From Rickettsia typhi (lineage in GTDB: Bacteria > Pseudomonadota > Alphaproteobacteria > Rickettsiales > UBA1997), in the NCBI GenBank assembly GCA_945865905.1, contig CAMBFC010000007.1, positions 7,706 through 71,705 of the forward strand: a DNA stretch of 64,000 bases. The letters run 5' to 3'. The translations under genes and the position numbers were made by a program. This document shows positions 4,672 through 61,434 of this stretch, piece by piece. The notes under the pieces were generated by a model, which was not told where the DNA came from, searched no databases, and worked only from the letters and a program-made list of their open reading frames with translations. The stretch's first letter is position 1; the number at the start of each line of letters is the position of its first letter.

Positions 4672-5673
4672 ATGCAACAAGGTTGGTTTAACAAATTTAA
4701 AAAAAACAAACGCGGACATTATTCTTTTTTAATTTTTGCAGTTATTTTTTCTCTCACATTTTTTGCAGAAATTATTGCTAATGATAAGCCGATAGTGGTG
4801 CGGTTTCGCGGTGATTTTTATTTTCCGATTGTGAGCAAAATTGCTGAGACAAAATTTGGTGGTGTTTTTGAAACTGATGCTGATTATCGAGATGTTGCGG
4901 TGCAAAAAATGATTGAGAAAGATGGTTGGATGATTTGGCCTTTGCTGCGATTTTCTTATGATACAATAAATTATAATTTACAAACTCCTGCACCTTCAAA
5001 ACCTACGGCGGAGAATCTTCTGGGCAGTGATGATAATGGTCGAGATGTTTTAGCGCGAGTGATTTATGGTGTGCGTATTTCTTTGATTTTTGGGATTGTG
5101 TTGACATTTTTTAGTGCAGTAATTGCAATTTTTTTAGGTGCGGTTCAGGGTTATTTTGGTGGGTTAATTGATATTTTTTTGCAGCGATTTAGTGAGATTT
5201 GGTCGGCAATGCCAGTTTTATTTTTGTTGATTATAATGTCTTCAATCTTAGAGCCAAGCTTCTTTACCCTTATTGGCTTGATGTTGCTTTTTAGTTGGAT
5301 ATCTTTGGCAGTTTATGTGCGTGCAGAATTTTTGCGCTTGAAGAATTTTGATTTTGTAATGGCGGCGAGGGCTTTGGGCGCAAGCAATTGGCGTATTATA
5401 AGCAAACATATTTTGCCCAACGCTTCGGCGGTGATTATTTCTAACTTGCCGTTTTTGTTGAGCGGAGCAATTATTACGCTAACTTCGCTTGATTTTCTTG
5501 GGCTTGGAATGGCATTGGGCGAGCCGTCACTCGGCGAATTATTGGCGCAGGGAAAAAATAACATCAATGCTTGGTGGCTTGGTTTGAGCGGTTTTGTGGT
5601 GGTTTCGGTTATTCTAACTTTGCTAATTTTTATTGGTGAGGCTGTGCGCGATGGGTTTGATACACGAAAATAA
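4672..5673 (+). CDS. yejE: ABC transporter permease, YejE-like (peptide/microcin-type importer)
   Basis: 333 aa, polytopic. N-terminus and the EAA-type loop MAARALGASNWRIISKHILPN are typical of the YejE/OppC family. Confidence 0.75.
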   Translation: MQQGWFNKFKKNKRGHYSFLIFAVIFSLTFFAEIIANDKPIVVRFRGDFYFPIVSKIAETKFGGVFETDADYRDVAVQKMIEKDGWMIWPLLRFSYDTINYNLQTPAPSKPTAENLLGSDDNGRDVLARVIYGVRISLIFGIVLTFFSAVIAIFLGAVQGYFGGLIDIFLQRFSEIWSAMPVLFLLIIMSSILEPSFFTLIGLMLLFSWISLAVYVRAEFLRLKNFDFVMAARALGASNWRIISKHILPNASAVIISNLPFLLSGAIITLTSLDFLGLGMALGEPSLGELLAQGKNNINAWWLGLSGFVVVSVILTLLIFIGEAVRDGFDTRK

Positions 5674-5785
5674 TTTTGCTAACACAAGATTGATTTTCTT
5701 AAACTGCTATTTTCTAAATATTTCTTGAACATTTCTGCAAAAGCGCCTAATTTCAATGCTTTCAAAATAATAAATTATCTTAAAC

Positions 5786-7039
5786 ATGCCGATCGAAATT
5801 TTAATGCCAGCCCTTTCTCCTACAATGAAAGAGGGAAATCTTGCAAAATGGTTAAAAAAAGAAGGTGATAAAATCAAGGCCGGCGAGGTTATTGCTGAGA
5901 TTGAAACCGATAAAGCGACTATGGAAGTTGAAGCGGTTGACGAAGGTATTTTGGGCAAAATTGTTATTGCGGCAGGCACCGAAAATGTTGCGGTGAATAG
6001 TTTGATTGCTTTGCTTCTTGAGGCTGGCGAAGATAAAAAAGTTCTTGATAGTTATAAAGTTGTATCAGGCGGAAGTGCTTCAGTTGCGGCTTTGGCCCCA
6101 GTTGAAGAAAAAAAATCTCCACAAATTGCTGCAGTTTCTAATTCTAGCAATGTGGCTGCAACCTTTGATAATAAAGGCTTAAAAGCTAGTCCTCTTGCCA
6201 AAAGAATTGCTAAAGAAAATAATGTTTCACTAGCGCAAATCAATGGCAGCGGCCCTCATGGACGCATTATTAAAGATGATGTTTTATCTTTTGCTGGCAG
6301 TGGATCAGCTCGCGCAGGCTCTGTTTATCGCAATTTGCAAGAATTTACTGCAGTTAAAAATAACAATATTCGTAAAGTTATTTCGAAGCGCTTGCTAGAA
6401 TCTAAACAAACAGTGCCTCATTTTTATCTTTCTTGCGATTTGCAAATTGATAAATTATTAGAGTTAAGAACAGCTATAAACTCAGTTGCAGAAGGCGCTG
6501 ACGGAATTGTTGCTTATAAAGTTTCTGTTAATGATGTTGTTATTAAAGCAGTTGCAATGGCTTTGAAAAAAGTTCCACAAGCAAACAGCTCTTGGTCTGA
6601 TGATGCAATTTTGCTTTATAATAATATCGATATTTCAGTTGCAGTTGCAATTGATGGTGGATTAATTACGCCAATTATTCGCAATGCTGATCAAAAATCT
6701 ATCGCAGCAATTTCGATTGAGATGAAGCAATTGGCAAAAAAAGCTAGAGAAGGAAAGCTACAGCCTGAAGAGTTTCAAGGTGGTGGATTTAGTATTTCAA
6801 ATTTAGGAATGTTTGGTGTTGATAATTTTAATGCCATCGTTAATCCGCCGCAAAGTTGTATTTTGGCGGTGGGGCGCGGTATCGAAAAACCAATTGTAGA
6901 AAATGGCGAAATCGCAATTGCTACAGTTATGAATGTTACTCTATCTTCAGACCACAGATCTGTAGATGGTTCGGTTGGCGCAGAATTTTTAAAGGCTCTA
7001 AGAAATTATATCGAAAATCCTATTTTGATGTTGATTTAA
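5786..7039 (+). CDS. pdhC: Pyruvate dehydrogenase E2, dihydrolipoamide acetyltransferase
   Basis: Lipoyl domain MPALSPTMKEGNLAKW...EIETDKATMEVEA, E3-binding segment ASPLAKRIAKENN, catalytic DHRSVDG. Confidence 0.9.
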   Translation: MPIEILMPALSPTMKEGNLAKWLKKEGDKIKAGEVIAEIETDKATMEVEAVDEGILGKIVIAAGTENVAVNSLIALLLEAGEDKKVLDSYKVVSGGSASVAALAPVEEKKSPQIAAVSNSSNVAATFDNKGLKASPLAKRIAKENNVSLAQINGSGPHGRIIKDDVLSFAGSGSARAGSVYRNLQEFTAVKNNNIRKVISKRLLESKQTVPHFYLSCDLQIDKLLELRTAINSVAEGADGIVAYKVSVNDVVIKAVAMALKKVPQANSSWSDDAILLYNNIDISVAVAIDGGLITPIIRNADQKSIAAISIEMKQLAKKAREGKLQPEEFQGGGFSISNLGMFGVDNFNAIVNPPQSCILAVGRGIEKPIVENGEIAIATVMNVTLSSDHRSVDGSVGAEFLKALRNYIENPILMLI

Positions 7040-7455: not shown

Positions 7456-8259
7456 ATGAAAACACACCACAAAAAAAAGCCACCACTCATCTTGCTTCTC
7501 ACCTTGCTTTTTTTTGCAACAAATTCTTACGCCATAGATAACAGCCAAACTGATCGTTCACGAGTTGTGGCGCCTCGCAATGATCGTTTCAATCGCAATG
7601 ATCGCGTGCGTAAATACATCAATTTTAGTGGCGAATATGAATCTGATCAAAACAGCAAACAATATGTTGTGTCGACCGGCCATTTTTATCGTAGCAATAA
7701 ATGGATTAACGAAACCGACTTTCTTTATCAAAAAGATTATTCACAAAAATCTGCTAATAATTATGAATTAAAGCCAAGCTCTGAGCTTTATGATTTTCAA
7801 ATGTCGAGCAAAATTGTTATTCCTGATACGCAAGATTATATCGTTTTATATACTCGCGATAAATATAATCCGCTTTCTACTTATTATTATGATCTCACTA
7901 ACGCCGCGGGTGTAGGGCGTATGTTTTTTGACGATTTGTTTGAAATTGATGTGGCAATTGGACATAGCGAAGTTAAAGAGTATGATCAAAAAACCACGCT
8001 GATTCCTTCATTTCGTGCTGAGTTTGATATTTGGGAAAAGCTTCATTTTATTCAGCGCGGCTACATGTATTTTAGTGATGAGGCGAACGATTATCAAATG
8101 CGCACAAGGTTGCAATATCCGATTGGCAAACAACTTTATTTGCAGGTTTCATATGATACAGATAAACGCACTTACACCAATAAGGCCAAGCATGAGAAGG
8201 TGAATGAAGTGCATCGCAGAATTGTTTTTGGATTTCGTTATGATTTGGGCAGCAATTGA
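7456..8259 (+). CDS. Hypothetical exported protein, possibly an outer-membrane beta-barrel
   Basis: 267 aa. Signal peptide MKTHHKKKPPLILLLTLLFFATNSYA followed by an aromatic-rich sequence with alternating pattern. Family not recognised. Confidence 0.5.
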   Translation: MKTHHKKKPPLILLLTLLFFATNSYAIDNSQTDRSRVVAPRNDRFNRNDRVRKYINFSGEYESDQNSKQYVVSTGHFYRSNKWINETDFLYQKDYSQKSANNYELKPSSELYDFQMSSKIVIPDTQDYIVLYTRDKYNPLSTYYYDLTNAAGVGRMFFDDLFEIDVAIGHSEVKEYDQKTTLIPSFRAEFDIWEKLHFIQRGYMYFSDEANDYQMRTRLQYPIGKQLYLQVSYDTDKRTYTNKAKHEKVNEVHRRIVFGFRYDLGSN

Positions 8260-26252: not shown

Positions 26253-26585
26253 ATGAAAATCTACAATTTTGTCAAAAAGCACAATATTTCTAAAGTAGTT
26301 TTCGTTTCTTATTTTGCTTTTTTTGCAGTTATAATTTATTTTTTATTTTGTACTTTTTTTGGTCAAAAAGGCCTGTTTGCCTATGTTGCTTTGCAAAAAA
26401 AAATCGATAATCAAGATTTGATAAAGCAAGAATTATCAAATAAAATGCAAGTGAAAAAAAACATGGTAGAAGGCATGAATGTTGAATCCCTAGACCTTGA
26501 TTTGCTTGATGAAGAGGCGCGCAGAGCGCTTGGATATTCAAACAAAAATGAAGTCGTAATATATAAAAATTCTGAAAAAAAATGA
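26253..26585 (+). CDS. ftsB: Cell division protein FtsB (septum formation initiator family)
   Basis: 110 aa: one TM helix, a coiled-coil segment, and the conserved end ARRALGYSNKNEVVI. Confidence 0.8.
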   Translation: MKIYNFVKKHNISKVVFVSYFAFFAVIIYFLFCTFFGQKGLFAYVALQKKIDNQDLIKQELSNKMQVKKNMVEGMNVESLDLDLLDEEARRALGYSNKNEVVIYKNSEKK

Positions 26586-27208
26586 GCGAATTTTCTTTGA
26601 GCCGTGAAATTTCACGCAAATCATTTCATCTTTTAATTTTACTTTTTCCTGCTGCTTTTTATTTTCTAGGAAAGTGGACAGCCTTGGCAATCATAGCCCC
26701 AATCACTTTAATTGTTTTTTCTGTTGATTATTTTCGTCGCACTAATCCCAAGCTACAATTATATTTTCAAAAGTTTTTTAAAGCGATATTGCGTGAACAT
26801 GAAATCACTGGCGATAAATTTTGTGGAGCCACATGGGCATTGCTTGCAGCCAGCTCAATATTTTTAATCTGCACCGAAGAAATCGCTGTTACTGCCTTTG
26901 TAATTTTGGCAATATCTGATACTTTTGCAGCAATTATTGGCAAAAGTTTTATCAGCAAGCCATTTTTTGAAAAATCAACTTATGGTTCGGCGGCCTTTTA
27001 TATCACTGGTTTGATCGTGCTTTTTGCTTGTGGCGGAATGTTTCATTCAAGATTATGGTTTTATTTATTTGGATTTTTTGCACTTTTTTGTGCCACAATA
27101 ATCGAAGCGCGCCCTAGTTTTTTTGGTGTTGATGATAATTTTTCTGTTCCTGTTAGCTTTGCGGCGATCATGTCATCCTTTGATTTGATATGGAATTATA
27201 GCTACTAA
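26582..27208 (+). CDS. Diacylglycerol/polyprenol kinase family membrane protein (CTP-transferase-1 superfamily)
   Basis: 208-aa polytopic protein with N-terminal EISRKSFHLL motif and ISDTFAAIIGK; 4-nt overlap with ftsB. Confidence 0.45.
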   Translation: MSEFSLSREISRKSFHLLILLFPAAFYFLGKWTALAIIAPITLIVFSVDYFRRTNPKLQLYFQKFFKAILREHEITGDKFCGATWALLAASSIFLICTEEIAVTAFVILAISDTFAAIIGKSFISKPFFEKSTYGSAAFYITGLIVLFACGGMFHSRLWFYLFGFFALFCATIIEARPSFFGVDDNFSVPVSFAAIMSSFDLIWNYSY

Positions 27209-54329: not shown

Positions 54330-54507
54330 GTAGAGAATTAGGTTTGAGTTATAAATTATCTCGTGAGTATGGGAGAGGAGCTCTGAGGCGAGTTCTGCGC
54401 TTCATCGCAAGCTACGCTTGCTTAAATCAGATGAACGCGGTGTCTGAGCAGCAGAGCTCCTCTCCCATACTCACGAGATAATTTATAACTAAAACCTAAT
54501 TCTCTAC
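54330..54507 (-). repeat. Family-B hairpin repeat, copy B7 (56-nt arms; right arm overlaps the last 3 codons plus stop of the downstream gene)
   Basis: Arms GTAGAGAATTAGGTTTGAGTTATAAATTATCTCGTGAGTATGGGAGAGGAGCTCTG and its complement, with one G:A mismatch. Typical inverted B core. Confidence 0.92.
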
Positions 54508-55293
54508 AATAAACCCATTTTCCTTAAAAATATTCTTCGCCTGCGTCGTCTTCAAAAACTTCAAAAATTCTCGCGCAATATCCATATTATCACCAGCAAT
54601 CACCAGTGCTTGATAAAAAAGATGCTGACTTTTCTTGCGCGATAAAATTCTTAACTCATCGCGATTATTAACCTGACTCGCCAATAAAATCGCATAGCTA
54701 TCGGCATTATCTTGCAATAAATTTGCGATTGACGATTTATCTTCACTCAGTTTTGTAAATAGCTTAATATCATGAATCTGTAGTGATTCTATGATATTTT
54801 TGCTATATTTTCCTAACGAAGAATCTTCGTTATCGATGATTAAATTTAAGTGATTTTGGTTTAAAATTTGTAACGCTTCTTCAAAATCAGGATTTTTTTC
54901 TAGCAAATAACTTGGTGCTGATAAATTATCATGAGAGGTTACCAGAACTAGATCATCGCTAGCAATATGGCTAACATTATAAATATCAATCAGGCCTTTT
55001 TGCTTCAAATTAAGCAACCAATCTTGGTGAGCCGAAATAAAAACATCCGCTGGTTCACCAGAGTCAATATCATTGATTAAGTCAGCAGCAGAAGCAAACC
55101 CCACCGAAACAATCACCGCATTTTTTTGCGAATAAGTGCGTGAAATTTTAGTGAGGGCAGCAACCAAATTGGGCTCAGCAAGAACGGTTAAGCTCTTGAT
55201 TTGAGAAGCATTAACCGTGGTTGCGCAAAATAAGAACAGCACCGTAAATGCCAAAATATTTTGCAATAATCCACGGCCAAAATTTAAAATCAT
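54496..55293 (-). CDS. Periplasmic substrate-binding protein, ModA-like (molybdate/anion SBP family)
   Basis: Signal-like N-terminus. LTVLAEPNLVAALTKISRTYSQKN...SVGFASAADLINDIDSGEPADVFISA resembles the ModA family. 4-nt overlap with nrdB. Confidence 0.45.
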   Translation of the reverse strand: MILNFGRGLLQNILAFTVLFLFCATTVNASQIKSLTVLAEPNLVAALTKISRTYSQKNAVIVSVGFASAADLINDIDSGEPADVFISAHQDWLLNLKQKGLIDIYNVSHIASDDLVLVTSHDNLSAPSYLLEKNPDFEEALQILNQNHLNLIIDNEDSSLGKYSKNIIESLQIHDIKLFTKLSEDKSSIANLLQDNADSYAILLASQVNNRDELRILSRKKSQHLFYQALVIAGDNMDIAREFLKFLKTTQAKNIFKENGFIVEN

Positions 55294-56285
55294 ACCGATA
55301 ACATAGTTTTGCGTTGATCGTCAATTTCATCAAATACCTCTTCCCATGTTCCAGTAGTAGATGCCTTGCTATATTCAGTAACACGATTTTCGAAGAAATT
55401 TGTATGCTCAACGCCGTTCAAAATTTCATCCAACCAAGGAAGTGGATTATTATCGATCATATAAATATCCTTCAAACCTAGCTGGTTCAAGCGTCTATCG
55501 GCAATATAGCGAATATATCTTTTTACTTCGCGAGAAGTTAATCCTTCAATATTTCCCATTTCAAAAGCCAAATCGATAAAGGCATCTTCAAAATGCACAA
55601 TCGTCGCGCAAGCTTCATACAAGCGGCCCTTTAGTTCTTCATCCCAAACTTCAGGATTTTCTTGTACAAAAGTACGGAATAATTTGATGATCGAAGCTGT
55701 GTGCAAACTTTCATCGCGCACCGACCAAGCCACGATTTGCCCCATTCCTTTCATTTTGCCAAAGCGCTGAAAATTCAACAAAATCGCAAAAGAAGCAAAA
55801 AGTTGCAATCCTTCAGTAAAGCCACCAAACACCGCCAGAGTAGTCGCGATATCTTTTTTGGTAGCAACACCAAATTTATGCATGAAGTCATATTTATCCT
55901 TCATCTCTTTATATTTCATGAAAGCAGAATATTCTTGCTCTGGCATGCCAATAGTATCAAGCAAATGCGAATAAGCGGCAATATGCACGGTTTCCATATT
56001 AGAAAAAGCCGCCAACATCATCTGCACTTCTGTTGGTTGAAAAACCCGCGAATAATGCTTCATGTAGCAGTTATTCACCTCAATATCTGCCTGAGTAAAA
56101 AAGCGAAAAATTTGCGTCAAAAGATTTTTTTCTCCCGCAGTTAAATTATGCTTCCAATCGCGCACATCATCCGCTAAAGGAACTTCTTCAGGAAGCCAAT
56201 GAATCTGCTGTTGCTTAAGCCATGCATCATAAGCCCAAGGATAGTGAAAAGGTTTGTAAATCGGTTTTGAATCTAGTAAAGACAT
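55290..56285 (-). CDS. nrdB: Ribonucleotide-diphosphate reductase beta subunit
   Basis: Ferritin-like di-iron protein with ExxH pairs (METVHIAAYSH and, tentatively, RDESLHTA) and an acidic C-terminal tail WEEVFDEIDD. Confidence 0.9.
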   Translation of the reverse strand: MSLLDSKPIYKPFHYPWAYDAWLKQQQIHWLPEEVPLADDVRDWKHNLTAGEKNLLTQIFRFFTQADIEVNNCYMKHYSRVFQPTEVQMMLAAFSNMETVHIAAYSHLLDTIGMPEQEYSAFMKYKEMKDKYDFMHKFGVATKKDIATTLAVFGGFTEGLQLFASFAILLNFQRFGKMKGMGQIVAWSVRDESLHTASIIKLFRTFVQENPEVWDEELKGRLYEACATIVHFEDAFIDLAFEMGNIEGLTSREVKRYIRYIADRRLNQLGLKDIYMIDNNPLPWLDEILNGVEHTNFFENRVTEYSKASTTGTWEEVFDEIDDQRKTMLSV

Positions 56286-56460
56286 AAATCAAATTATTGT
56301 TAATCTCGGATTATAAATTTAATTCTTTTTTAAAAGAAACGAAAGGAGTTTTTTATTTTTTTTTAGCAACTTTATAAGTCCAACATTAATAAGCTGCGCG
56401 AAGCAATTTGCAGGTTTTTTATCGCGTTAAAAAGAAAAATCCACCTGACTACTGAAAAAA

Positions 56461-57681
56461 TTAGCTAACATTGCAGAGCCTTGAACTGGGTTTAGTTTTT
56501 TTGGCTTCGGGTTTACTGGCGCTTGCCGCAGGAGAAGCTGCTTTAAAATGCCTAGATCCTATCTCTGAAGTGCCTTGAGATAACGCAATTGCTTTAGCTA
56601 AATCTTCATCCTGATTCGTACCTTCTGACTGACTCGCAGAAATTGCTGCATGAGCATCGCCTCCACCCTCTAAGGATAACGCAATTGCTTTAGCTAGCTC
56701 CGCATCCTGATTCGTGGCAACAAGGCCATCAAAACTTCTCCTTAAATTCTCAACTCTTGTCATCTTATCTACCAAATTTTCTTCTTGTTGACCATAAGTG
56801 TCTAACATCTTTCTTAGCGCTGGAACAGTTGTTCTTATTGCTCCCACATAATCATCGCCCACAACTAAAGGATCAATAAAATCCTTTATAGATAATTTGC
56901 TATCAATTGCCCCCAAATCCTTAAATCTATTAAATTGATTAGAAAATGCCTGATAATTTTCTGTATTTTCTCTTAAATGCCCAAGATGTTCTGCTGAGCC
57001 ATTTGCCGCTTGAGCTGCAAATTCCAAAACTTGATTATTATATCCAATTCCCATTTCTACATCAATAAGGGCAGCAACAACCCTTGTAGGTCTCGCACCA
57101 TCCCTTGATAACTCGTCAACTCTTCTAACATTATCAGGCTCGTCATCAATATAAATTGCGACTCCTCCTCCCCTCCTAGCAACCTCAAGGCCCTGAAGAT
57201 ATGATAAAACTTGAGCTTTTTTGTCAAAGCGCTCATCTCCCGATATAACTTGAGCATCATCAGCCCCAAGACCAGATCCCGTTATCACTGCACTTGCTTG
57301 AGTAATATCTGCTTTTGCCAAAGCTGAGCCCTCTACAACCTTAAATCTTTTGTAATAATCTCCGGGTTTGCGACCTGGAAGCAGATCATTTGTGATACAA
57401 ACAGTTATTTCCTTCCCAAGAGCGCGTGCAATTTCTGCCTCAACTTTTTGCAATCCCATGTTGCGCCAATTAACATTTTGATTTTTTATTGCAGATCGCA
57501 AAAATCTTGCTCCAAAGGCAGTAGCATTTCTTCCAGTAATTTCAGCGCAATCAGCAATATTGCCTTTATTTGCTGCAATAAACTCAAGCACAGCATCGTT
57601 GTAGAAGCCATCAATATTGCTAACCATGCAACCATCAACATCGACTAAAAAGGTAAATTGAGGTAAAACTTTAGTCGGCAT
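56461..57681 (-). CDS. Hypothetical protein with two C-terminal ubiquitin-interacting motifs (UIM) and a polybasic CaaX-like C-terminus; possible HAD-like N-terminal domain
   Basis: 406 aa. NQDAELAKAIALSLEGG (res 324-340) and NQDEDLAKAIALSQG (res 356-370) fit the UIM consensus. C-terminus is KPEAKKTKPSSRLCNVS. N-terminal LVDVDGCM and IYIDDEPDN are HAD-like. Confidence 0.6.
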   Translation of the reverse strand: MPTKVLPQFTFLVDVDGCMVSNIDGFYNDAVLEFIAANKGNIADCAEITGRNATAFGARFLRSAIKNQNVNWRNMGLQKVEAEIARALGKEITVCITNDLLPGRKPGDYYKRFKVVEGSALAKADITQASAVITGSGLGADDAQVISGDERFDKKAQVLSYLQGLEVARRGGGVAIYIDDEPDNVRRVDELSRDGARPTRVVAALIDVEMGIGYNNQVLEFAAQAANGSAEHLGHLRENTENYQAFSNQFNRFKDLGAIDSKLSIKDFIDPLVVGDDYVGAIRTTVPALRKMLDTYGQQEENLVDKMTRVENLRRSFDGLVATNQDAELAKAIALSLEGGGDAHAAISASQSEGTNQDEDLAKAIALSQGTSEIGSRHFKAASPAASASKPEAKKTKPSSRLCNVS

Positions 57682-57849
57682 AAAATGAATAAATTATTAG
57701 ATAAAATAAATCTTTCCCAAAGTTAGTAAATTTTTTTTAATAAAAGCAATTAAATTAAAAATAAATTATTCCCCTTTGTATATTTTACTTGCAGGCCAAG
57801 AGATAAAACTTAAGGCTCAATATATCAAAATAGTTTTGCCAAAAAATAC

Positions 57850-57877
57850 TTGACTACATTCCTAGGTTTTTTATAAT
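57850..57877 (+). promoter_or_regulatory. Sigma-70-type promoter upstream of the peroxiredoxin gene
   Basis: TTGACT, 16-nt spacer, TATAAT; ~40 nt upstream of the start codon at 57915. Confidence 0.5.
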
Positions 57878-57914
57878 TAACAGCCAATAACAACCCAAAA
57901 ACTTTTTAAATTAT

Positions 57915-58517
57915 ATGTCAGTATTAGTAGGAAAAAAAGCCCCAGATTTTACCGCAGCAGCAGTTATGGGCAACAATGAAGTCAACGATAAATTCAATCT
58001 TCACGCTTTCTTAAAAGGCAAAATCGGCGTATTATTTTTTTACCCACTAGATTTCACTTTTGTTTGTCCATCAGAAATCATCGCTTTTAATCACCGCCTT
58101 AAAGATTTTCATGCCCTAGGCGCAGAAGTCATCGGCGTTTCAGTCGATTCACATTTTTCTCACATCGCATGGAAAAATACCGAAGTTAACAATGGTGGAA
58201 TCGGCCAAGTGCAATATCCACTAGTTGCAGATTTAACCAAAAACATCGCTCGTGATTATGATGTTTTAATCAATGAAGCCGTGGCTTTGCGTGGCACTTT
58301 CTTAATCGATCAAGATGGCGTTGTTCGCCACCAAGTTATCAATGATTTGCCACTCGGACGCAATATCGACGAGGCTATCCGCATGGTTGAAGCTCTAAAA
58401 TTCTTCCAAGCTCATGGCGAAGTTTGTCCTGCAGGTTGGAACAAAGGAAAAAAAGGTATGAAGCCAAACGCAGCAGGCGTTGCTGAATATCTTGCCGGCA
58501 ATGCAAAAGATTTGTAG
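57915..58517 (+). CDS. ahpC: Typical 2-Cys peroxiredoxin (AhpC/Prx1 family)
   Basis: Peroxidatic Cys in FTFVCPSEI, resolving Cys in GEVCPAGW. Confidence 0.92.
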   Translation: MSVLVGKKAPDFTAAAVMGNNEVNDKFNLHAFLKGKIGVLFFYPLDFTFVCPSEIIAFNHRLKDFHALGAEVIGVSVDSHFSHIAWKNTEVNNGGIGQVQYPLVADLTKNIARDYDVLINEAVALRGTFLIDQDGVVRHQVINDLPLGRNIDEAIRMVEALKFFQAHGEVCPAGWNKGKKGMKPNAAGVAEYLAGNAKDL

Positions 58518-58596
58518 TTAATTTTTGAGGGGCGTGCAGTTTTTTGCTTCGCCCCCCAATTGATATATGATTTCAATAAGGCAAAAAAAACTTCGC

Positions 58597-58624
58597 TTGA
58601 CTTGAAAAACAAAACAGCTAAATT
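58597..58624 (+). promoter_or_regulatory. Candidate sigma-70 promoter of rpsL-rpsG
   Basis: TTGACT, 16-nt spacer, TAAATT; ~90 nt upstream of rpsL. Confidence 0.35.
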
Positions 58625-58712
58625 ATTTGCCCCTTGAAATAAATAGTTTGATAAATACCTAGGGAAAATTATCACACAGCAATAAATTTTAATATTTTTA
58701 ATAAATTTTTCG

Positions 58713-59084
58713 ATGCCAACAGTTAATCAGCTTATCAGAAAGCCAAGAATCGGCCAAACCAAGAAGAACAAGGTTCCGGCTATGCAAGGATGCCCACAAA
58801 AAAGAGGTGTTTGTACCCGTGTTTATACCACAACTCCAAAAAAACCAAACTCAGCACTTCGTAAAGTTGCGCGCGTTAAACTTACCAACGGACATGAAGT
58901 TATTGCTTACATTCCGGGTGAGGGTCATAACTTGCAAGAACACTCTGTTGTCGCGCTTCGCGGTGGCCGTGTAAAAGATTTGCCGGGTGTGCGTTATCAC
59001 TTGATAAGAGGTTACTTGGATACTCAAGGCGTTAAAAATCGCAAACAATCTCGTTCAAAATACGGTGCACAAAAACCTAAATAG
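58713..59084 (+). CDS. rpsL: 30S ribosomal protein S12
   Basis: [10 protein letters not shown]...[19 protein letters not shown]; 123 aa. Confidence 0.98.
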
Positions 59085-59120
59085 TTTCTCATATTATAAT
59101 ATTTTTTAAGTTAGTAAATC

Positions 59121-59588
59121 ATGCGTAGAAGAGCTGCACAAGTAAGAAAAATCATTCCAGATGCCAAATATGGCGAAATCATCGTTTCTCGATTTGTTAA
59201 TCGTTTGATGGATGATGGCAAAAAATCAGTTGTTGAAAAAGCTATTTACCAAGCTTTCGATGAAATTGAAAAAAAATTCAAAAGAAACCCAGTTGAGGTT
59301 TTTAAAGAAGCTATGGATAATGTAACTCCAAAAGTTGAAGTTAGATCTCGCAGAATTGGCGGCGCAACTTACCAAATTCCAGTTGAAGTTTCTCCTAGAC
59401 GCGGTTCAGCTTTGGCTTTAAAATGGCTAAAAATTGCAATCTGCAATATCAAAGGAAAAGGCCTATCTAACAAAGTTCAATTCGTTATTGTTGAATCTCT
59501 AGAAAATAAAGGTTGGGCAGTTAAAAAACGCGAAGAAGTTTTCAAAATGGCTGAAGCAAACAAAGCTTTTGCTCACTATCGTTGGTAG
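59121..59588 (+). CDS. rpsG: 30S ribosomal protein S7
   Basis: MRRRAAQVRKIIPDAKYG...GGATYQIPVEV...AFAHYRW; 155 aa. Confidence 0.98.
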   Translation: MRRRAAQVRKIIPDAKYGEIIVSRFVNRLMDDGKKSVVEKAIYQAFDEIEKKFKRNPVEVFKEAMDNVTPKVEVRSRRIGGATYQIPVEVSPRRGSALALKWLKIAICNIKGKGLSNKVQFVIVESLENKGWAVKKREEVFKMAEANKAFAHYRW

Positions 59589-59609
59589 TATTAAGCAAAA
59601 TTATTTTAA

Positions 59610-59645
59610 AAAAGGTGGTCGCAAAATTTGTGGCCACCTTTTTTT
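59610..59645 (+). terminator. Rho-independent terminator after rpsG
   Basis: A-run, stem GGTGGTC/GGCCACC (one T:G), then T7. Unexpected inside a normally contiguous str operon. Confidence 0.7.
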
Positions 59646-59721
59646 ATGCAAAATTGTTTAGCTTTTTAGAGTTGCGCTAATATATTTTGCGCCAATTAAA
59701 CATTTTAGAAAAATTTTATTA

Positions 59722-61434
59722 ATGATAAAATCCCCTCAATTTGATATAGTAATTCCTGTCCATAAAAAAGACCTGGCCATTCTTGAATACTGCATTGAAG
59801 CAGCTCGCAAGAAGATTGTGGGCGTTAGAAGAATCATCACTATTTCACAAGAAAAATACACCGATAGTGCAGAATGGTTTCCTGAATCACAATTTCCTTT
59901 TTCAATGGATTTTGTGCGCCAATATACCGGCGGATCTTGTGGTTGGTATTTTCAGCAGCTTCTCAAGCTTTATGCCCCGCTAGTTATTCCTGATATTTCT
60001 GAAAATGTTTTGATTCTTGATAGTGATACGGTTTTTTTTCGTAAAACCAAAATGTTTGATAATTGCGGTCGGCCATTTTATAACACCAGCAAAGATACTA
60101 AAATATGTCACAAGCCTTTTGATGTTGAGGCTGAAGAGCATATTAATAAATTATGGCCAAAAATCTCGCGTACCAATCTTCCCGTTGAATTTAAAGAAAT
60201 TTCTGGTGTTTGCCATAGCATGATGTTCAATCGTGAGATAATCACCGAATTGTTCGATAAGGTCGAAAAATATGATGACAGCGGCGATAAATTTTTTAAA
60301 ATTTTTTTAAAGCATGCTAACCATGGCCACTCTGCCTCAGAATATCAAATTTATTTTAATTTTTTACTAATTTTTCATAGCAAAAAAATTGCGATGAGAA
60401 AATTAAAATATAAAAATACCGCCGATCTCAATATTAAAAAATATCGTAAGCGCCTAAAATATAGTTATTGCTCTTTCCATTCTTACTTGCGAAAAGGACT
60501 TTGCAATTCTCCGCGCGTGAAAATAGAAAATTTCTTCAAAAAAATCTGGCACAAATTATTTGAAGTAGAGCAGTGGAATATTGGCATTGCAAATTGCAAT
60601 ATTGCACAATTTTTAACAATGCCAAATCAAAAAATTCATTGGCTAAAAAACACGCCACTAAGTGAATTTAGAGCCGATCCTTTTGGTTTGATAAAAGATA
60701 ATAAAAAATTTATCTTTTTTGAAAAATACGATCGCATCAAAAGAAAAGGAAAAATTTCTATTTTAGAAATAGGCGAAAATCTTAAAATTATAAGTGAAAA
60801 AGATGTTTTGGAAAAAAATCACCATTTGTCGTATCCTTATATTTTTTCTCATGAGGCAAAAAATTACGCCTTAGTTGAAAGCCATCGAGCCAAAGAATTG
60901 GTGCTTTACGAGGTTTTGCAAGATTTGCAGCTTAAAAAAATCAAAGTGATTTTTGATAATTTGGAGGTAGTTGATCCATCGATTATTTTTTATGAAAATA
61001 GATTTTGGCTATTCTTTTCTTTAGCCAATGAGGGTGATGCCAATCTTTATATTGCATATGCAGATACATTGGAAGATGTATGGAAAATGCATCCAAAAAA
61101 TCCAGTAAAAAGCGATGTTGCTTCGGCGCGTTCTGCTGGTGAAATTTTTACGCATAATAAAATTTTATATAGACCGGCGCAAAATTGTTCTCGCAGTTAT
61201 GGTGCGGCAATCATGATTAATAAAATCATACAATTAACAACAGAAGAATTTGAAGAAATTGAAGAAATGGAAATCGCGCCAAATCAATTGGGGCAATACC
61301 CTCTCGGTCTTCACAATATTGCATCTTTAGGAAAAAATGTTACGATTATTGATGGTAAAAAAAGATTTTTCGTGCCACATAAAATTTTTATTTATCTCGC
61401 TTTTAAAGTGAGAAAATTCTTAATCAAGTTGTAA
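59722..61434 (+). CDS. Two-domain protein: N-terminal GT-A-fold nucleotide-sugar transferase-like domain (DxD) plus unknown C-terminal domain
   Basis: 570 aa. FDIVIPVHKKDL...GWYFQQLLKLYAPLVIPDISENVLILDSDTVFF is a GT-A-like pattern with DSD. The C-terminal half (ADPF..., LSYPYIF..., DPSIIFYENRFWLFFS) looks like a beta-rich domain. Confidence 0.5.
   Translation: MIKSPQFDIVIPVHKKDLAILEYCIEAARKKIVGVRRIITISQEKYTDSAEWFPESQFPFSMDFVRQYTGGSCGWYFQQLLKLYAPLVIPDISENVLILDSDTVFFRKTKMFDNCGRPFYNTSKDTKICHKPFDVEAEEHINKLWPKISRTNLPVEFKEISGVCHSMMFNREIITELFDKVEKYDDSGDKFFKIFLKHANHGHSASEYQIYFNFLLIFHSKKIAMRKLKYKNTADLNIKKYRKRLKYSYCSFHSYLRKGLCNSPRVKIENFFKKIWHKLFEVEQWNIGIANCNIAQFLTMPNQKIHWLKNTPLSEFRADPFGLIKDNKKFIFFEKYDRIKRKGKISILEIGENLKIISEKDVLEKNHHLSYPYIFSHEAKNYALVESHRAKELVLYEVLQDLQLKKIKVIFDNLEVVDPSIIFYENRFWLFFSLANEGDANLYIAYADTLEDVWKMHPKNPVKSDVASARSAGEIFTHNKILYRPAQNCSRSYGAAIMINKIIQLTTEEFEEIEEMEIAPNQLGQYPLGLHNIASLGKNVTIIDGKKRFFVPHKIFIYLAFKVRKFLIKL

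Follow-up and report, generated by a model that had tools for sequence, protein, structure and literature searches.

The 64,000-nucleotide stretch of DNA analysed here (contig CAMBFC010000007.1, positions 7,706 to 71,705 of the forward strand; hereafter, the window) carries a gene, inserted between ahpC and nrdB, for a protein of 406 amino acids. This protein combines a probable haloacid dehalogenase (HAD)-like N-terminal domain with two stretches that resemble the ubiquitin-interacting motif (UIM) of eukaryotes, and it ends in a basic tail and a CaaX-like tetrapeptide. An earlier inspection of the nucleotides alone (the sequence-only reading) had proposed that it is a translocated effector, lipidated by the host and able to bind ubiquitin. 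The open reading frame (ORF) lies on the minus strand with the limits given by that reading, and its translation matches the protein then quoted. The exact protein sequence is also present in NCBI, ENA and Logan assemblies, and another locus (L004) is 100% identical to the window over 5.3 kb. Related proteins and the loci compared are referred to below by P and L numbers. The features of the gene, from the N-terminus to the C-terminus of its product, are as follows.

56461-57681, minus strand: complete ORF of 406 amino acids plus stop, with an ATG start and its stop codon at 56461-56463.
57064-57681, minus strand: predicted divergent HAD-like Rossmannoid core, residues 1-206, with an inserted helical cap (about residues 53-146), from an AlphaFold2 model.
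57634-57642, minus strand: HAD motif I, D14-V-D16, where strand 1 ends and directly after strand 9-13; putative nucleophile and general acid, invariant.
57529-57537, minus strand: HAD motif II, T49-G50-R51 ('ITGR'), at the end of strand 2; invariant, and matched in alignment by the TGR of 3mpo and 3r4c, both HAD-IIB structures.
57220-57222, minus strand: candidate HAD motif III, K154, at the start of helix 154-164 preceding strand 4; placed from the model and invariant in the family alignment.
57142-57147, minus strand: HAD motif IV, D179-D180 ('YIDDEPDN'), at the end of strand 173-179; invariant in the family alignment, and S-E in a degenerate paralogue at locus L089.
56713-57063, minus strand: conserved helical extension (YNxQALxLAIxAANG, then DWFKAV-type helices) and variable helical linker, residues 207-323, from alignment and model.
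56662-56712, minus strand: UIM-like motif 1, residues 324-340, NQDAELAKAIALSLEGG, from Pfam; it aligns with motifs in P0002, P0007, P0008 and P0009.
56675-56715: copy B of the direct DNA repeat (41 nt; 90% identity with copy A), from repeat comparison.
56617-56661, minus strand: linker between the two UIM-like motifs, rich in Gly, Ala and Ser, residues 341-355, read from the sequence; absent from the one-UIM allele P0001.
56572-56616, minus strand: UIM-like motif 2, residues 356-370, NQDEDLAKAIALSQG, from Pfam.
56579-56619: direct DNA repeat copy A, 41 nt, from repeat comparison.
56476-56565, minus strand: basic, hydrophilic tail, residues 373-402, with an isoelectric point (pI) of 10.2; a candidate C-terminal signal for a type IV secretion system (T4SS), a polybasic membrane patch, or both.
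56464-56475, minus strand: CaaX-like C-terminus, C403-N-V-S406, read from the sequence and followed by the stop codon.

Both UIM-like stretches fit the pattern of acidic residues followed by Phi-x-x-A-x-x-x-S (Phi, hydrophobic), and their cores, D-A-E-L-A-K-A-I-A-L-S-L-E and D-E-D-L-A-K-A-I-A-L-S, fit the UIM consensus. They lie C-terminal to the folded domain, which ends near residue 300. A helical state is predicted for them only by a low-confidence full-length AlphaFold model built on four near-identical sequences (predicted local distance difference test score, pLDDT, 38), which we discarded. The two UIM models are the sole Pfam families matched by the protein: UIM_2 (PF23625) reaches 24.0 bits, above its gathering cutoff of 21 (E = 2.9e-5, the two stretches being summed), whereas UIM (PF02809), with 20.5 bits, stays just below its own cutoff of 21. 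NCBIfam gave no match. By profile the claim of two UIMs is thus borderline, UIM_2 passing only on the summed copies and PF02809 and single copies being sub-threshold; agreement with the consensus and the retention of the motif in remote homologues speak for it. The motifs are indeed encoded by a direct DNA repeat, although this is of 41 nt and not about 45 nt. Its copies are offset by 96 nt, or 32 codons, and were not called as a tandem array by Tandem Repeats Finder (TRF). Because the repeat points to one shared origin, the two UIM copies are not independent evidence.

As a control for chance, regular expressions were run on 877 ORFs of at least 200 amino acids from the window and 80 alphaproteobacterial loci. 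The UIM core was matched by 12 of these ORFs (about 1.4%), a Cys at position -4 was present in 19 (2.2%) and a strict CaaX in 2 (0.2%), one of them the protein described here. The UIM core and a CaaX-type ending occurred together only in this protein, where about 0.01 such ORFs would be expected, for a feature chosen post hoc. We find the apparent conservation of the UIM position within the family more persuasive than these profile and pattern statistics. UIM-type motifs lie at the position that aligns with UIM 1 of the window protein in P0007 (DDKELAHAIALSLGG), P0008 (SDEELNRATALSFGG) and P0009 (EIEFKRALALSL), and UIM-like motifs are also aligned in P0002 and P0003, with flanks that cannot be aligned. 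As isolated peptides, the motifs of P0007, P0009, P0002 and P0003 match UIM families only in Pfam, at 13.6-19.2 bits.

The family is a small one, undescribed and missing from Pfam and NCBIfam. A word-indexed search of 5.8 billion proteins returned three clusters only, all from the same locus in closely related strains, and the same type of search with a family profile returned 5 proteins. An exhaustive HMMER scan with residues 1-323 against 1.84 billion cluster representatives found ten proteins in total, of which the new members (P0007-P0015) are 34-48% identical to the window protein over the matched stretches and 31-37% in their N-domains. A scan of GTDB genomes with the window protein found no relative, and a metagenome DNA scan added only loci L092 and L093. 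The eight representatives with fetched contigs lie on AT-rich (32-34% GC), bacterial-type metagenome contigs (L091 being a JGI record), presumably from lakes, judging by the sample names. Family members share an N-terminal domain of about 300 residues, and the sequence after it is wholly different. In P0012, P0013 and P0016 (loci L091 and L087), a bilobed hydrophobic stretch (hairpin) of about 50 residues near the C-terminus replaces the basic tail, while P0011 and P0015 carry another, large C-terminal module. Locus L089 (563-6891) holds three tandem paralogues: P0008 (503 amino acids, with several UIM-like motifs), P0011 (811 amino acids) and a third copy in which the DD of motif IV is replaced by SE and which carries the C-terminal module of about 200 amino acids common to P0011 and P0015. 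A conserved enzyme head with swappable host-type tails, tandem paralogues and scattered insertions among housekeeping genes is the usual signature of an effector family in bacteria that live with hosts. As a separate observation, the hydrophobic hairpin of P0012, P0013 and P0016 resembles the membrane-insertion hairpins of vacuole-membrane effectors. At locus L087, nuo and ATP-synthase genes surround a gene for a 385-amino-acid ankyrin-repeat protein (4806-5963), which is 4 kb upstream of P0013 and suggests that this organism is also host associated.

The N-terminal domain is probably HAD-like, as distinct from a demonstrated member of the HAD family. The sequence-only reading had made this call tentatively, from DxDG (D14-G17) and DD (D179-D180), and the family has strengthened it: four catalytic motifs are invariant, T49 of motif II ('ITGR') being additional to those named before, and the predicted topology is HAD-like. 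In an alignment of eight family sequences (31-37% identity to the window protein), 34 positions are invariant, including D14, D16, T49-G50-R51, K154 and D179-D180; N215, L219, A225 and N227 are invariant in the extension. AlphaFold2, run on this shallow eight-sequence alignment, gave a pLDDT of 86 and a predicted template-modelling score (pTM) of 0.88. The model has strands at residues 9-13, 42-49, 93-96, 173-179 and 199-205, short bridges at residues 16-27 that correspond to the HAD flap, and a largely helical insertion (53-146) that holds the short strand 93-96. HAD motifs I-IV fall in the canonical order at canonical strand ends. Helices 208-226, 230-255, 265-272 and 278-283 have pLDDT values above 90, and the extension thus reaches about residue 283. 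The fold is confidently predicted and is without a close solved neighbour in the PDB.

Cof-type (IIB) HAD phosphatases typically have TGR as motif II. When the family profile was compared with the PDB (177,635 sequences), the top two matches were Cof-type HAD-IIB hydrolases, 3mpo and 3r4c, in alignments covering DxD and TGR and at E values (0.29 and 0.44) that are not significant, a weak signal in the direction of a HAD fold. One family member matches Pfam S6PP weakly (E 0.09). In a Foldseek search of BFVD, a HAD hydrolase of Fadolivirus, a giant virus, ranked second (probability 1.0, E 5.5e-3, template-modelling score, TM, 0.52), and seven more HAD-type entries were among the top 50. With the Cof-type HAD-IIB proteins (3mpo, 3r4c and E. 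coli YidA, 1rkq) the predicted domain shares DxD followed by a small residue, a 'TGR' about 33 residues later, a Lys before strand 4, an acidic pair at a strand end and a cap inserted after the first part of the core. It differs from them in that its cap is all-helical rather than an alpha/beta C2 cap, its motif IV is 'DDxPxN' rather than 'GDxxND', and its conserved helical extension (207-300) is without a counterpart; the structural match, moreover, is not significant (TM about 0.34). Other results speak against the HAD assignment. Searches with the single N-domain sequence (Pfam, NCBIfam and PDB phmmer) gave no match, and Foldseek against the PDB gave no hit at E <= 1e-3, with TM about 0.3. 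The top PDB fold matches were Rossmann folds of the HUP class (PanC, CDPS and TyrRS), with HAD proteins (Plasmodium IMP-nucleotidase, Legionella Lem4 and YidA) interleaved among HUP-class folds. We considered and rejected a PanC/CDPS/TyrRS identity, as TM is about 0.3, HIGH/KMSKS-type motifs are missing and the DxD/T/K/DD pattern fits a HAD protein. Other HAD proteins were sought in the fetched loci for a comparison profile, and none was found.

The C-terminus is of interest for two different reasons. The tail runs ...KKTKPSSRLCNVS, the protein ends in ...KPEAKKTKPSSRLCNVS with Cys403 at position -4, and the last 34 residues have a pI of 10.2. The Cys four residues from the C-terminus, with Ser as X, is there as claimed (C403-N-V-S406), and CNVS agrees with the formal CaaX rule in having Val at a2 and Ser at X. 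The CaaX of the window allele is shared by P0001 (CNVS), and the frame-broken allele at L003 has CNIS. Among the remote homologues, P0016 ends ...SSCNYA, with a Cys at -4, and P0012 ends ...SFCNNKN, with a Cys at -5. The thresholds used by S4TE for T4SS effectors of alphaproteobacteria are at least 3 H/R/K in the last 25 residues, a charge of at least +2 and a hydrophilic C-terminus (PMC3814349). The window protein (5 H/R/K, charge +3), P0002 (5, +3) and P0003 (4, +2) all lie within these thresholds, with a grand average of hydropathy (GRAVY) of -0.48 to -0.72 over the same residues. The tail may primarily be a secretion signal, with farnesylation as an allele-specific addition. The anchor of the K-Ras type that had been proposed retains CNVS, after a basic linker and within the rule; it loses ground because nothing of the kind is found in P0002 and in most of the family. 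The sequence-only reading had itself named a C-terminus that is not conserved as a reason to abandon its case, and in part this is what we find, with P0002 ending in RPKTQKAPLI and most homologues without a CaaX. Prenylation would therefore be the weakest of the claims, the CaaX-like tail being missing from the closest divergent allele and most of the family. Prenylation of the window allele, taken jointly with the translocation that it requires, seems to us rather doubtful.

Comparison of alleles suggests how this C-terminal region has changed. P0001 equals the window protein minus exactly one unit of 32 residues (96 nt) and so has one UIM; this one-UIM state (window 56617-56712) could have arisen by unequal recombination of the 41-nt repeats or be an artefact of assembly collapse. 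P0002 (locus L001) is identical to the window protein over the N-terminal 230 residues and strongly divergent at the C-terminus, where it has one good UIM (KDEEFARAIALSE) and a degenerate second copy (RDEEFARELASS). An independent origin of the two-UIM state in the window and L001 alleles was considered and rejected, as the DNA of the inter-UIM linker can be aligned between them. The UIM duplication probably predates the split of these two alleles, and deletion mediated by the repeats is the probable origin of one-UIM alleles. The gene call P0003 (locus L003) is truncated: a 146-nt frame-breaking deletion removes residues 18-66 or thereabouts, including motif II. The deletion recurs in an independent JGI contig, L092 (positions 2991-3116 in L003, from ENA, and 2991-3116 in L092, from JGI), and it is therefore a real, natural null or truncated allele rather than an assembly error.

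The gene lies in a setting of housekeeping genes, with ahpC and beyond it rpsL-rpsG on one side, nrdB and a gene for a substrate-binding protein (SBP) on the other, and thymidylate kinase (tmk) three genes away. Neighbours and secretion genes were sought among about 20 of the 49 ORFs of the window, and the other parts scanned were likewise housekeeping, with rpoC, dnaG and the genes for the pyruvate and 2-oxoglutarate dehydrogenase complexes among them. Only about 180-200 bp separate ahpC from nrdB in the closest genomes (L007 and L009), where no gene lies between the two; the gene is therefore a lineage-specific insertion. Neither flanking repeats nor a mobile-element signature was found around the insertion, and comparison of the ahpC-nrdB spacers of the sister genomes with those of the window likewise gave AT-rich chance matches only. 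The gene had been thought less AT-rich than its neighbours, which is not the case: its GC content is 40.7% (window mean, 37.7%), that of the adjacent ahpC is 41.8%, and its GC content at third codon positions (GC3) is lower than that of its neighbours (26.3% against 33-36%). There is no compositional anomaly or sign of recent import.

The gene evolves faster at the protein level than the genes around it. Against L001, codons 231-327 give a ratio of nonsynonymous to synonymous divergence (dN/dS) of 0.9, and against L003 the two halves give 0.6 and 1.45, compared with 0.00-0.09 for ahpC, nrdB and the SBP gene; this would mean relaxed or diversifying selection on the linker and the C-terminal part. 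Between-strain synonymous divergence (dS) is a mosaic over 54400-59700 of the window, ranging from 0.02 to 0.40 (against L001: ahpC, 0.02; nrdB, 0.14; SBP gene, 0.40), which points to frequent homologous recombination in the population. Frequent recombination is unusual for classical obligate intracellular Rickettsiales. A drop in identity with L001 toward the 3' end was not retained as a sign of gene-specific hypervariability, since divergence is mosaic across the locus (SBP gene dS, 0.40); the gene-specific trait is the high dN/dS.

The source organism resembles the 'Ca. Gamibacteraceae' and is probably an uncultured freshwater member of the Rickettsiales close to UBA2645. The NrdB protein of the window is 92% identical to those of three freshwater metagenome-assembled genomes (MAGs), including 'Rickettsiales bacterium UBA2645', and 84% identical to that of 'Ca. 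Megaera'. UBA2645 is a member of 'Ca. Gamibacteraceae', an aquatic, MAG-only family of Rickettsiales that is sister to the ectosymbiont 'Ca. Deianiraea' and lacks an ATP/ADP translocase (bioRxiv 10.1101/2021.08.31.458344; PMC9352585). The rvh T4SS is described as characteristic of the Rickettsiales (PMC9352585).

The reading that in our view best explains these observations is that of an accessory, lineage-restricted protein that the bacterium delivers to the cytosol of its eukaryotic host, probably a protist, and we consider the evidence for it about evenly balanced. Under this reading, residues 1 to about 206 would form a divergent HAD-type aspartyl-phosphatase with a helical cap, in which D14 would be the nucleophile, acting with D16, T49, K154 and D179/D180. 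Residues from about 207 to 323 would form a family-specific helical extension, to be followed by one or two UIM-type helices joined via a flexible 32-residue repeat unit and, last, by the basic tail. The basic C-terminus would be the recognition signal for the rvh T4SS of Rickettsiales. In the host, the UIM helix or helices would bind ubiquitin on ubiquitinated membrane or cargo proteins, ubiquitin binding would position or activate the phosphatase, and the enzyme would dephosphorylate a host phospho-protein or phospho-metabolite. For CNVS at the end of the window allele, farnesylation by the host farnesyltransferase is a further possibility; the farnesyl group and the Lys-rich patch would then jointly keep the protein at the inner face of a host membrane. 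Such an anchor would be limited to some alleles, and other members would use the 50-residue hydrophobic hairpin or other C-terminal modules. The analysis itself establishes the sequence features, the family, the conserved catalytic residues and UIM position, the predicted fold, the lineage-specific insertion, the fast evolution and the natural loss alleles; we infer secretion, ubiquitin binding, phosphatase activity and prenylation. An N-terminal signal peptide is unlikely because residues 9-13 are predicted to form strand 1 of the fold, and the protein has no transmembrane segment. The idea of an effector fits because the gene is a lineage-specific insertion that evolves fast, with modular C-termini and tandem paralogues in its family, in an apparent Rickettsiales host and with a C-terminus that fits S4TE. 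Of the earlier proposal of a host-lipidated, ubiquitin-binding translocated effector, the UIM and HAD parts are thus strengthened by the family, the prenylation part is weakened, and effector status is something we infer.

A number of observations weigh against this reading. The profile support for the UIMs appears borderline, as the UIM_2 cutoff is passed only by summing two copies of one origin. A single copy scores 19.3-20.5 bits as an isolated 24-mer, below the threshold, and the UIM inside single-UIM homologues scores 11-12.7 bits. Chance matches to the UIM core exist among the control ORFs, P0010-P0013 and P0016 are without a canonical UIM, and the second UIM copy of P0002 has Glu at the key Ala position. 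In the CaaX, the a1 residue is Asn, which is non-aliphatic; Asn at a1 is tolerated by farnesyltransferase. The nearest divergent allele, P0002, has no Cys in any frame at its end, the CaaX is missing from most of the family (P0016, with CNYA, is the only remote homologue with a Cys at -4), and a basic C-terminus is not kept in remote homologues. No vir or rvh (T4SS) genes were seen among the ORFs scanned in the window (about 20 of 49). A dN/dS near 1 together with a natural frameshift allele would also be expected of a decaying gene. The Gamibacteraceae may moreover be ectosymbiotic (PMC9352585).

The alternative that survives best keeps translocation and working UIMs and takes CNVS as incidental, the Lys- and Arg-rich tail serving only as a C-terminal type IV secretion signal, with no lipidation; we regard this as a possible but tentative reading, well short of an even chance. 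What is kept across the three alleles is positive charge and not the Cys, since the tail of P0002 (...KTQKAPLI) has none, and a Cys at -4 arises by chance in about 2% of control ORFs. Positive C-terminal charge is also a hallmark of alphaproteobacterial VirB/D4 substrates (PMC3814349). However, a strict CaaX (aliphatic a2, X = S) is rare, being present in only the 2 of 877 control ORFs that include this protein, and the change of a2 from Val to Ile in the L003 allele stays aliphatic. P0016 also ends in C-N-Y-A, and the hydrophobic hairpin found at the same place in other members suggests that membrane attachment matters to the family.

It is distinctly unlikely, in our judgement, that the protein is an ordinary intrabacterial HAD enzyme (a nucleotidase or sugar-phosphatase, for example) with a disordered C-terminal tail, the likeness to UIMs and CaaX being coincidental. 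Such an enzyme would account for the conserved catalytic motifs and for neighbours in nucleotide metabolism (nrdB adjacent, thymidylate kinase three genes off), each UIM is sub-threshold alone, short motifs can occur by chance, and no secretion system was seen among the roughly 20 of 49 window ORFs. However, the gene is missing at the same locus in sister genomes, and elsewhere the family occurs in unrelated contexts, such as that of P0013 at locus L087 between nuoC-SNase and folC; proximity to nucleotide genes is thus not a constant of the family. Although the sequence around it is not retained, the UIM-type motif stays in place at 31-37% identity, dN/dS exceeds that of the housekeeping neighbours by a factor of about ten or more, and tandem paralogues with swapped C-terminal modules and hydrophobic hairpins would be unusual for a metabolic enzyme.

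That the gene is a decaying or effectively neutral orphan, the remnant of a once useful accessory gene whose motifs are without present function, is very unlikely: the dN/dS of 0.6-1.45, the 146-nt frame-breaking deletion with loss of motif II in two independent assemblies, the variable repeat copy number, the degenerate second UIM of P0002 and the third L089 paralogue without motif IV would all agree with decay, but several independent assemblies carry the full-length ORF intact and with identical sequence, the 230-residue N-domain is the same in the alleles of the window and L001, the 25 amino acid changes of the L003 allele all miss the family-invariant positions, and the 34 invariant positions, including all catalytic residues, at 31-37% identity require long-term purifying selection.

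The preferred reading, that of a delivered HAD phosphatase with UIMs, has partial precedents among known effectors. Legionella Lem4 (lpg1101) joins an N-terminal HAD phosphotyrosine phosphatase to a C-terminal module that binds host membranes and is delivered by a T4SS, and Ceg4, also of Legionella, is a HAD effector phosphatase like Lem4 (PMC10720952). The likeness to Lem4 lies in the HAD head with a C-terminal positioning module, and the HAD domain of Lem4 (6cgj) was at rank 24 in the Foldseek search of the PDB. However, sequence homology to Lem4 is not detectable, and the folds match only weakly (probability 0.35, TM 0.24-0.33). Lem4 uses a domain that binds phosphatidylinositol 4-phosphate (PI(4)P) where the window protein has UIMs and a CaaX; cap and motif context also differ, motif II of the window protein being of the Cof type ('TGR'), and the bacterium of Lem4 is a gammaproteobacterium with a Dot/Icm type IVB secretion system (T4BSS). 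In Legionella AnkB/Pel, the C-terminal CaaX Cys is used by host farnesyl/geranylgeranyl transferase, RCE1 and ICMT for membrane anchoring (PMC13081727). The window protein shares with AnkB/Pel a C-terminal Cys at -4, but the Legionella CaaX Cys is described as conserved and required, whereas in the window family it is present only in some alleles and is a putative substrate. None of the Legionella proteins is described with a CaaX and UIMs together. The comparison with AnkB made by the sequence-only reading is thus an analogy only: no search result (ten representatives, eight traced to contigs) pointed to homology with Legionella AnkB, Pel or Lem4, and the organism is a Rickettsiales-type alphaproteobacterium.

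PtpA and PtpB of M. tuberculosis, secreted phosphatases whose action in the host needs ubiquitin binding via a UIM-like region (PMC5048167; PMC12560355), come closest in function to a phosphatase with a UIM. They differ in fold (low-molecular-weight and atypical protein tyrosine phosphatase [PTP] folds as against a HAD-like fold), in secretion route and in bacterial phylum, and their UIM-like regions are internal and non-canonical whereas the motifs of the window protein are canonical-looking, C-terminal and repeated. A search of the literature for effectors of bacteria or symbionts with canonical UIMs found nothing beyond these 'UIM-like' cases, and no description of a combination of HAD, UIM and CaaX was found in the searchable literature. 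With the eukaryotic tandem-UIM adaptors (Vps27/Hrs, epsins, Eps15 and S5a/Rpn10), the window protein shares an e-e-x-Phi-x-x-A-x-x-x-S helix, here 'LAKAIALS', in two copies. Two UIMs on a flexible linker give the eukaryotic adaptors avidity for poly- or multi-ubiquitinated cargo. Unlike them, the window protein is bacterial, and the likeness is confined to a motif of about 15 residues. Convergence is a more likely origin of the UIMs than gene transfer, because GC3 is native-like and the exhaustive search gave only ten representatives, eight of them traced on AT-rich, bacterial-type contigs. Each element has a separate precedent, and the protein would best be described, by analogy, as an effector with eukaryote-type motifs on an undescribed domain family.

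Some further features of the region deserve mention. A promoter-like site is present 12 nt upstream of the ATG:

57693-57720, minus strand: TTGGGA, a 16-nt spacer and AATAAT, a weak match to the consensus.

Nine promoter-like sites were counted in the region, compared with 5.0 +/- 2.2 in shuffled sequences, and this is no evidence of function; no downstream intrinsic terminator was found. At 59722-61434 on the plus strand lies a gene for a 570-amino-acid protein with the Pfam domain GINT1_N, the N-domain of a eukaryote-type glycosyltransferase. It is placed between rpsG and fusA, splitting the normally contiguous str operon, and its homologues are at the same position in UBA2645 (L009, 2363-4072) and beside fusA in L008. 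Two further plus-strand ORFs, at 7456-8259 (267 amino acids) and 26582-27208 (208 amino acids), have no Pfam match at E <= 1e-5 and sit in an otherwise fully annotatable housekeeping stretch.

The fullest form of our interpretation is that this protein founds an as yet undescribed family of effectors in aquatic Rickettsiales known only from MAGs ('Ca. Gamibacteraceae' and relatives), in which a HAD phosphatase is steered by genuine UIMs and by interchangeable host-membrane anchors, namely a farnesyl-polybasic tail in the window allele and the bilobed hydrophobic hairpin in others; we consider it unlikely. If true, it would be the first described bacterial protein to join canonical UIMs with a host-prenylated CaaX, and it would add a new combination for positioning an effector: a HAD phosphatase, the reading of ubiquitin and alternative membrane anchors. 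To our knowledge, ubiquitin and protein prenylation do not exist in bacteria, and a bacterial UIM that is kept under selection would therefore make sense only on meeting eukaryotic cytosol. The finding would then be direct genomic evidence that these uncultured, possibly ectosymbiotic bacteria inject proteins into the eukaryotic cell's cytosol. The host and lifestyle of the Gamibacteraceae, whether ectosymbiotic or intracellular, bear on the debate over the origin of host association in Rickettsiales (PMC9352585). A validated translocated effector would be a concrete handle on that lifestyle.

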